DNA of 64,000 bases from Eledone cirrhosa (taxonomy: Eukaryota). Shown one piece after another: positions 43,012-44,144 of this stretch. Under the pieces are notes generated by a model that worked only from the letters and a program-made list of their open reading frames with translations, was not told where the DNA came from and made no database searches. Position 1 is the first letter of the stretch; the number at the start of each line of letters is the position of its first letter. The position numbers and the translations under genes are program-made. Where the stretch lies: NCBI GenBank assembly GCA_964016885.1, contig OZ024746.1, positions 66,402,001 to 66,466,000 of the forward strand, in the 5' to 3' direction.

Positions 43012-44144
43012 ATATAAAGAATTAGTATATCTACCAAATCTTAGTAAGTAAGTCGATTTTCATAATTTTGTTGTTTACGTCTTTCATATAATTGTTCTGC
43101 ATCCCCTTGCATAGAACCACAAAGTTACTAAGACAAAACATATATATTTGCTAGCATAGGTATGCATCTGTATACATATGTTGGTAGATATACTAATTCT
43201 TTATAATTATCTCCAAATTATTTGTTGAGCAAAACTAGCCGAAATTACTACTATGGTTCATGGTAGTGGCTAGGCCCTTGTCTTATTAGCACTCCACTCC
43301 TCACTGATTAACCTCAGTGTCACCTGATTGATTCTTTTGAATTTGCCACTGACCAAGTAGGCAGTGAATTTTTTCAATGTCTTGGAATTTAGTTCCCGCT
43401 AGCTTTATTCCATCGACTGAATTATTTTTATATAAGTTCCCAGTGTCCTCGCATTGCCTGGAAGCTTAGCTGAGAATAGACTCCTTGATGACGTAAGGTT
43501 TCTCTGTGGGTACGTTCCGTAACCATATTTATTCCCTTGCAGAAACTAATTAGTTGGAGTGAAATCTTAGTAAGTAAGTCGATTTTCATAATTTTCTTAT
43601 TTACGTCTTTCATATAATTGTTCTGCATCCTCTTGCATAGAACCACAAAGTTACTAAGACAAAACATATATATTTGCTAGCATAGGTATGCATCTGTATA
43701 CATATGTTGGTAGATATAGTAATCCTTTATAATTATCTCCAAATTTTTTTTGTTGAGCAAAACTTGCCGCAATTACTACTATGGTTTATGGTAGTGGCTA
43801 GGCCCTTGTCTTATTAGCACTCCACTCCTCACTAATTAACCTCAGTGTCACGTGATTGATTCTTTTGAATTTGCCACTGACCAAGTAGGCAGTGAATTTT
43901 TTCAATGTCTTGGAATTTAGTCCCCCGCTCGCTTTTTCCATCCACTGAATTATTTTTATATAAGTTCCCAGTGTCCTCGCATTGCCTGGAAGCTTAGCTG
44001 AGAATAGACTCCCTGATGACGTAAGGTTTCTCTGTGGGTACGTTCCGTAACCATATTTATTCCCTTACAGAAACTAATTAGTTGGAGTGAAATCTTAGTA
44101 AGTAAGTCGATTTTCATAATTTTCTTCTTTACGTCTTTCATATA
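43012..44144 (+). mobile_element. Retrozyme-like tandem repeat: ~527-bp units, each with one HHR
   Basis: Units start at 43036, 43562 and 44090. actcc-CTGATGA-c.gtaagg/ccttac.a-GAA-ACTAATTAGT-T-ggagt at 44008-44088; the copy at 43480-43560 has C3>T. Confidence 0.88.

Follow-up and report, generated by a model that had tools for sequence, protein, structure and literature searches.

The tandem repeat at positions 43012-44144 of the window (the whole 64,000-nt stretch of Eledone cirrhosa contig OZ024746.1 analysed here) raises the question of how a sequence with a predicted ribozyme and no open reading frame reached its place in the genome, and whether the ribozyme decided where the inserted copy begins. 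A sequence-only reading had described it as a retrozyme of about 527 bp whose 5' end sits at the predicted cleavage site. Our analysis favours a different landmark: we consider the repeat a non-LTR retrozyme with inverted arms ending at two fixed unit positions (U61 and U176, numbered as below) in (TA)n, likely pasted in by the reverse transcriptase (RT)-endonuclease of a Hydra-type Penelope-like element (PLE), a reading to which we assign a probability of about 0.8.

Anatomy of the tandem copy and its predicted ribozyme

The unit was numbered from the first base after the predicted cut (U1, position 43556). The features of the window copy, followed by those of a PLE in the same window, are:

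42915-43012: left (TA)n target run
43013-43037, minus strand: short arm in inverted orientation (U152-176), with its end at U176, the fixed tail site; from sequence match and family pattern
43036-43555, plus strand: unit 1 (U7-528), with its 5' end 6 nt beyond the cut-equivalent site
43202-43232, plus strand: motif TAT(A/T)TTAYCTCC-N6-13-GTYGAGCAA, starting at the tail end; second copy at about 43728-43760
43480-43560, plus strand: predicted type I hammerhead 1, whose TTGATGA core has a C3U change and is predicted to be impaired; cleavage predicted after 43555
43556-44083, plus strand: unit 2, complete 528-nt monomer; fold z −5.9 versus shuffles; longest stop-free run 88 aa
44008-44088, plus strand: predicted type I hammerhead 2, intact core, predicted cut after 44083
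44084-44144, plus strand: partial unit 3 (U1-61), which stops at U61, the fixed site without a tail
44145-44162: right TA-rich target run
15770-22700: PLE of putative Hydra type with two inverted, near-full arms, not adjacent to the retrozyme; candidate helper family
16876-19233, minus strand (785 aa), and 19451-21463, plus strand (670 aa): stop-free frames of this PLE

The array at 43036-44144 is composed of U7-528, U1-528 and U1-61, i.e., 2.1 units with lengths of 526 and 528 nt, and its self-alignment (43036-43616 versus 43562-44144) has 96.4% identity over 584 nt; the tandem, non-coding organisation given by the sequence-only reading is thus confirmed. So are its two cuts and its stem I: GAAACTAATTAGTT closes each unit at 43542-43555 and 44070-44083, ending exactly at the predicted sites, and in both units it is followed by GGAGT, which pairs with ACTCC ahead of the core. 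The array does start 6 nt downstream of the equivalent of the predicted cut (U7), and the inverted piece noticed before it is 25 nt long: 43013-43037 is the exact reverse complement of 43181-43205 (U152-176), with a 2-nt overlap with the array start. TA runs are present on both sides of the copy. One hammerhead per unit had also been proposed; the motif is in both units, but the core of the first (TTGATGA at 43485) has a C3U change that had been overlooked, so that only the second ribozyme of the copy (CTGATGA at 44013) has an intact core.

Hammerhead 2 has a 5-bp stem I, a covarying 6-bp stem II above a C·A mismatch, and a palindromic stem III. Its predicted fold lies within 1.2 kcal/mol of the best one, and the stem III palindrome is predicted to pair with itself at −10.8 kcal/mol. 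The exact pattern (core, GAAA, palindrome, and stem I) had 1,775 matches in the 3.0-Gb genome and 0 in the reversed control: the ribozyme pattern is not chance. Stem II is exchanged between subfamilies (GTAAGG/CCTTAC, GAAAGG/CCTTTC, and GCAATG/CATTGC). Among 268 ribozymes taken from fetched loci, with up to two mismatches allowed per motif half, its third pair is T-A in 186 and A-T in 67, being paired in 261, and its base is an unpaired C·A in 225. Hammerheads of PLEs are described as having a long stem II, a short stem I, and an unpaired base at stem II (PMC4209133). An Rfam scan gave 0 matches at the gathering score, and motif, fold, and covariation are what point to the predicted hammerhead identity. 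When further families combining this stem III palindrome with a short stem II were sought, all the matches listed (29) looked like deletion variants of the 528-nt family. In the single published test of vertebrate retrozyme dimers, as reported in 10.64898/2026.07.22.740005, one of nine was cleaved and eight were not.

Other repeats lie in the same window. A second hammerhead repeat family, with a unit of about 427 nt, is found beside the retrozyme at 42102-42914, with the core CTGACGA at 42675, a stem III formed by the palindrome ACTAGT, and cleavage predicted after 42705; it has two inverted arms in (TA)n and a 59-nt tail, and the same family adjoins several other loci. Further type I hammerhead-like motifs are present at 2830 (+), 9270 (+), 9637 (−), 10097 (+), 10063 (−), and 29294 (−), the one at 9637 resembling the ribozyme of the 821-aa PLE family described below. 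Broken LINE-type elements occupy 10304-13519 (−), with an endonuclease domain, and 58272-61990 (+), with an RT domain.

A dispersed family with two fixed 3' ends

The 528-nt repeat is a high-copy, dispersed, protein-free family, whose natural units (n = 284) measure 487-557 nt. A first DNA search scored 38 of 3,605 candidates, and those loci showed inverted arms ending at U61 and U176. This first sample (L001-L041) was biased toward full units and was excluded from the 5'-end statistics. The length bias was avoided by searching both 3' junctions as exact patterns, which returned at least 877 U176+(TA)n and 295 U61+(TA)n junctions genome-wide, with 0 in the controls. From these 1,172 junctions, 140 were examined in coordinate order on contigs C1 and C2, and the removal of three duplicates, recognised by their common flank, left 137 loci.

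An inverted partner arm was found at 95 of the 137 loci, a low-complexity match only at 18, and none at 24; the 42 loci that lack a recognisable partner speak against the PLE reading. Most partner arms (74/95) end at the other fixed site, three at the same site, and 18 elsewhere; the paired insertions combine an arm ending at U61 with an arm ending at U176, 115 nt apart, and a TA run lies outside the partner arm in 74/74 pairs. The window copy has this organisation, with a U61 arm of 1,109 nt that reaches U7 and a U176 arm of 25 nt. At the arm-arm junctions (n = 74), the arms overlap in 44 cases, are blunt in nine, and are separated by an insert in 21. In 24 of these pairs each arm has sequence that the other lacks, which simple fold-back copying of one arm from its partner would not produce, and fold-back as the sole source of the second arm was rejected. 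Partial tandems with an inverted 5'-truncated copy are also seen in the family.

The fixed landmarks of the insertions are the two 3' ends, U61 and U176. The protein of a PLE named PAc (Frangieh et al. 2024, PMC11167929) cuts and extends both target strands, and two internal RNA start sites delimit its tail in vitro. The ends at U61 and U176 in (TA)n match this PLE "tail" signature of two internal RT start sites, which are predicted to lie 115 nt apart in the retrozyme, and the inverted piece of the window copy is the short tail arm of a PLE-type insertion. The proposal of the sequence-only reading that the repeat moved by retrotransposition of a multimeric or circular RNA is supported by the dispersal of the copies and by the 67/211 arms that are longer than one unit.

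Inverted arms and TA flanks would also be expected from a MITE-like DNA transposon with a TA target that carries a hammerhead-like motif by chance. We consider this extremely improbable: the two ends are different unit positions (U61 versus U176), the interior and the inner ends vary freely, arms reach 1,460 nt, and stem II covaries. The asymmetric ends, without matching terminal inverted repeats around a fixed interior, refute a transposon of this kind.

The family also includes long arrays. One of them (G000:C5:84645976-84726568, loci L076-L084) spans 81 kb with 153 full units, keeps CTGATGA in 110 of them, contains higher-order repeats (identical pairs at lags 5, 6, 7, and 14), and ends at U176+(TA)n. 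The higher-order repeats reject a one-step origin, and together with the U176+(TA)n end they indicate that the array began as an insertion and grew as DNA. Its left end starts near U6 and is fused, with nothing in between, to an arm of the 427-nt family in inverted orientation, possibly a two-family chimeric insertion. Another tandem run, with a spacing of about 521 nt and belonging to the GAAAGG stem II subfamily, is at G000:C1:94666563-94673414.

Such higher-order repeats are what would be left by a PLE terminal fragment amplified as DNA, through local duplication or unequal crossover, a route suggested in 10.64898/2026.07.22.740005. As the origin of the family this is very unlikely, considering the dispersed exact junctions with (TA)n, the paired asymmetric arms with scattered inner ends, the absence of any unit joined to a PLE ORF at the loci examined, and the U176+(TA)n end of the 81-kb array itself. 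DNA-level amplification is refuted for the dispersed copies and holds for array growth only.

5' ends, the ribozyme site, and the template

The 5' ends were tabulated on 211 arms, 209 of which are at least 35 nt long. Forty-one of the 209 end in U1-30 (2.6-fold hazard, p 4e-7) and 168 elsewhere; 19 arms end in U1-10 (3.4-fold). The commonest 5' end is U7 (10/211), which is the one carried by the window copy, and only three arms end at U1-2, one of them being an internal deletion. A few more of the 5' ends counted lie against family sequence that is rearranged, and what looked like a pile-up at U493-495 shrank when subfamily references were used.

These numbers bear on the possibility that self-cleavage sets the template's 5' end, in which case insertions would extend as far as the cut and the copy in the window would represent a full-length product. 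Coherently with it, U0-29 is the highest-hazard 30-nt window of the unit (2.7-fold), the U1-30 excess persists in arms without junction overlap (14/71, p 0.002), and both arms stop near the cut in 9/74 pairs versus 4.1 expected (p 0.003). On the other hand, 157/211 arms continue past one cut site or more, and 41 past two, so that most 5' ends are not set by the cut. Moreover, the palindromic AAATTT starts at U7 in 60/83 units, which favours joining there, and the two 5' ends are coupled away from the cut as well (26/48 within 100 nt versus 17 expected). Also, none of the 28 ORF-bearing arms of the 821-aa PLE family begins at its cut (25/28 read through), and PAc ribozyme mutants left in vitro insertion unchanged (PMC11167929). 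On this balance a cut-defined 5' end is unlikely. The claim of the sequence-only reading stands for the preference near the cut and falls as a rule for genomic copies; the end of the window copy may derive from run-off on cleaved RNA or from an RT stall at the folded ribozyme.

A second question is the form of the template. Copies within one insertion differ by 3.2%, compared with a median of 8.9% between loci (92 loci): each insertion holds a single variant, the outcome expected from a rolled circle as well as from a homogeneous multimer. A circular monomer of 528 nt serving as a rolling-circle template, which is a sub-case of the PLE reading, would account for this, for the lack of overall unit-specific heterogeneity (199/183/195, p 0.70), and for the strong predicted self-pairing of the monomer (z −5.9 against shuffled sequences); circular RNAs have been demonstrated for the retrozymes of coral, mussel, and axolotl (PMC7229834). 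Alternatively, the template would be a multimer transcribed from a tandem locus and left uncut. Long arrays that can supply multimers exist, and in four of the six loci with four-way coverage one variant each is common to both arms in one unit only, with four shared unit-specific sites versus one arm-specific site. The shared unit-specific variants are a weak point in favour of a slightly heterogeneous multimer or of later conversion. We regard the circle as plausible, at somewhat less than even odds.

Considering the observed anatomy, end statistics, covariation, and parallel PLE ends, we infer the following RNA steps for the reading in which a PLE inserts the retrozyme. Tandem copies would give a multimeric RNA, on part of which the dimeric ribozyme would act, cutting it and perhaps closing it into circles. 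The PLE protein would bind the RNA, probably via the motif just 3' of U176, and nick both strands of a (TA)n run. Each DNA end would then prime reverse transcription internally, one at U176 and the other at U61. Both cDNAs would grow toward the RNA 5' end over variable distances; they would usually cross the ribozyme site, with stops about 2.6-fold more frequent immediately downstream of the cut, either at a cleaved 5' end or by stalling at the folded ribozyme. Lastly, the cDNA ends would be joined, mostly via 1-8 nt of microhomology.

Candidate helpers and comparison with known systems

The PLE of the window offers a candidate helper. Its protein has RWK, DKT, YRDD, and CxCx5C motifs, with a GIY-YIG-like region at its C-terminus; RWK, DKT, and CxCx5C mark the Hydra clade, whose insertions are in (TA)n (PMC8557442). 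Searching Pfam and solved structures with the protein gave nothing significant, so its clade rests on motifs, which make it putatively of Hydra type. It has 299 homologues (best 43%) with uninformative names. The family is young, with copies near 100% identical and many 785-aa frames genome-wide. Its 3' ends, at positions equivalent to 22588 and 22700, are in (TA)n: 27/30 loci end at one of these two sites (15 and 12), which lie 113 nt from each other. The only hammerhead candidate in the window PLE (at 22437) has weak stems and is not convincing. A second family of Hydra type (821 aa, L291-L320) has a long 3' region and a clear hammerhead of type I; its two ends lie 42 and 134 nt past the predicted ribozyme cut, with a tail of 92 nt.

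The 528-nt unit has no extended DNA similarity to either PLE family; the one strong match in the comparison with the 821-aa family is a retrozyme arm in the flank of one locus (L313). The motif TAT(A/T)TTAYCTCC-N6-13-GTYGAGCAA, defined after both sequences had been seen, begins at the tail end of both the retrozyme unit and the window PLE. Its core occurs three times in the window, in the two retrozyme units and at the PLE tail end, and the pattern has 6,382 matches genome-wide versus one in the control. When the subfamily units were scanned by alignment, the PLE tail end ranked first for only one of six, and the 821-aa family gave no signal. Given near 100% identity among the PLE copies, against 3.2% divergence of the retrozyme copies inside one insertion, an older relative may have served as the helper.

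A more specific proposal, which we advance tentatively and rate slightly below the circular template, is that a PLE protein of Hydra type, working as a dimer, copies the RNA circles of animal retrozymes in trans from two starts about 115 nt apart on one RNA, guided by the helper-shared motif just outside the copied tail. If so, only the following unit of the circle or tandem could supply the signal, and this would account for the need of retrozymes and PLEs to be tandem or circular. The proposal would also put a name to the enzyme moving animal retrozymes.

PLEs have been named as candidate movers of retrozymes (PMC7229834), and the mobilisation mechanism is described as remaining to be elucidated (10.64898/2026.07.22.740005). 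The family offers junction-level evidence for the PLE-driven insertion of an animal retrozyme, and raises the PLE tail length, in this genome, to 59-115 nt; the trace of the ribozyme cut on the 5' ends is no more than modest. It also supplies RT start sites predicted to the nucleotide, a motif that is a candidate for binding, and a candidate-helper ORF that is both intact and young, with which the question can enter the published PLE in vitro assay. Its value lies in the junction evidence and in testable start sites, not in its length or in a cut-defined 5' end. The sequence-only reading had taken the unit as longer than known retrozymes, which is not supported: families of 51-972 bp are reported (10.64898/2026.07.22.740005).

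The 528-nt repeat falls within the genomic definition of non-LTR retrozymes (PMC7229834). As described by Cervera and de la Pena (2020, PMC7229834) and by Li, Clavereau and Pollet (2026, 10.64898/2026.07.22.740005), animal non-LTR retrozymes have the same non-coding tandem unit with one type I hammerhead each, the same palindromic short stem III suited to dimer cleavage, low GC, the same range from monomers to long arrays, and co-existence with PLEs. In those papers the link to PLEs is argued from co-occurrence and pLTR similarity, whereas in the 528-nt family there is a PLE signature at the junctions and no extended pLTR similarity was found to the two PLE families compared. Circular RNA has been shown for published retrozymes (PMC7229834), while for the present family a circle is a proposal. 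The main texts of both papers contain the word "tail" 0 times and describe no inverted insertions, and a literature search, with supplements and most subscription papers outside it, found no report of such an analysis of retrozymes. The text of an octopus repeat annotation available to us (PMC13282606) does not mention ribozymes.

With the pLTR/tail architecture of PLEs (Craig et al. 2021, PMC8557442; PMC11167929) the retrozyme shares partial tandems, an inverted 5'-truncated copy, a tail at one end only, an AT-rich target, and read-through of the ribozyme site. It differs in having no ORF and a tail of 115 nt, versus the 30-40 nt published for PLEs (PMC8557442, PMC11167929). Both its start sites are TA-like and abut (TA)n, whereas the PAc start site is not homologous to the cut DNA; PAc needs RNA 3' of its start sites, and ribozyme cleavage is dispensable (PMC11167929). 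The (TA)n target and the hammerhead are in common with Hydra-clade PLEs (PMC8557442), and the two Hydra-type families found in this genome have two fixed ends 113 and 92 nt apart, like the paired ends of the retrozyme, which is, however, non-autonomous and has only a short motif in common with them.

The Chlamys non-autonomous elements such as MRC1 (PMC8557442) are likewise non-coding PLE passengers with pLTRs and head-to-tail multicopy insertions. They belong to a green alga, they generally resemble their helper at the 3' end, and no ribozyme is described for them in the available text of that paper. In comparison with these systems, the repeat is a retrozyme of an already known type, very likely moving as a non-autonomous PLE mobilised in trans.
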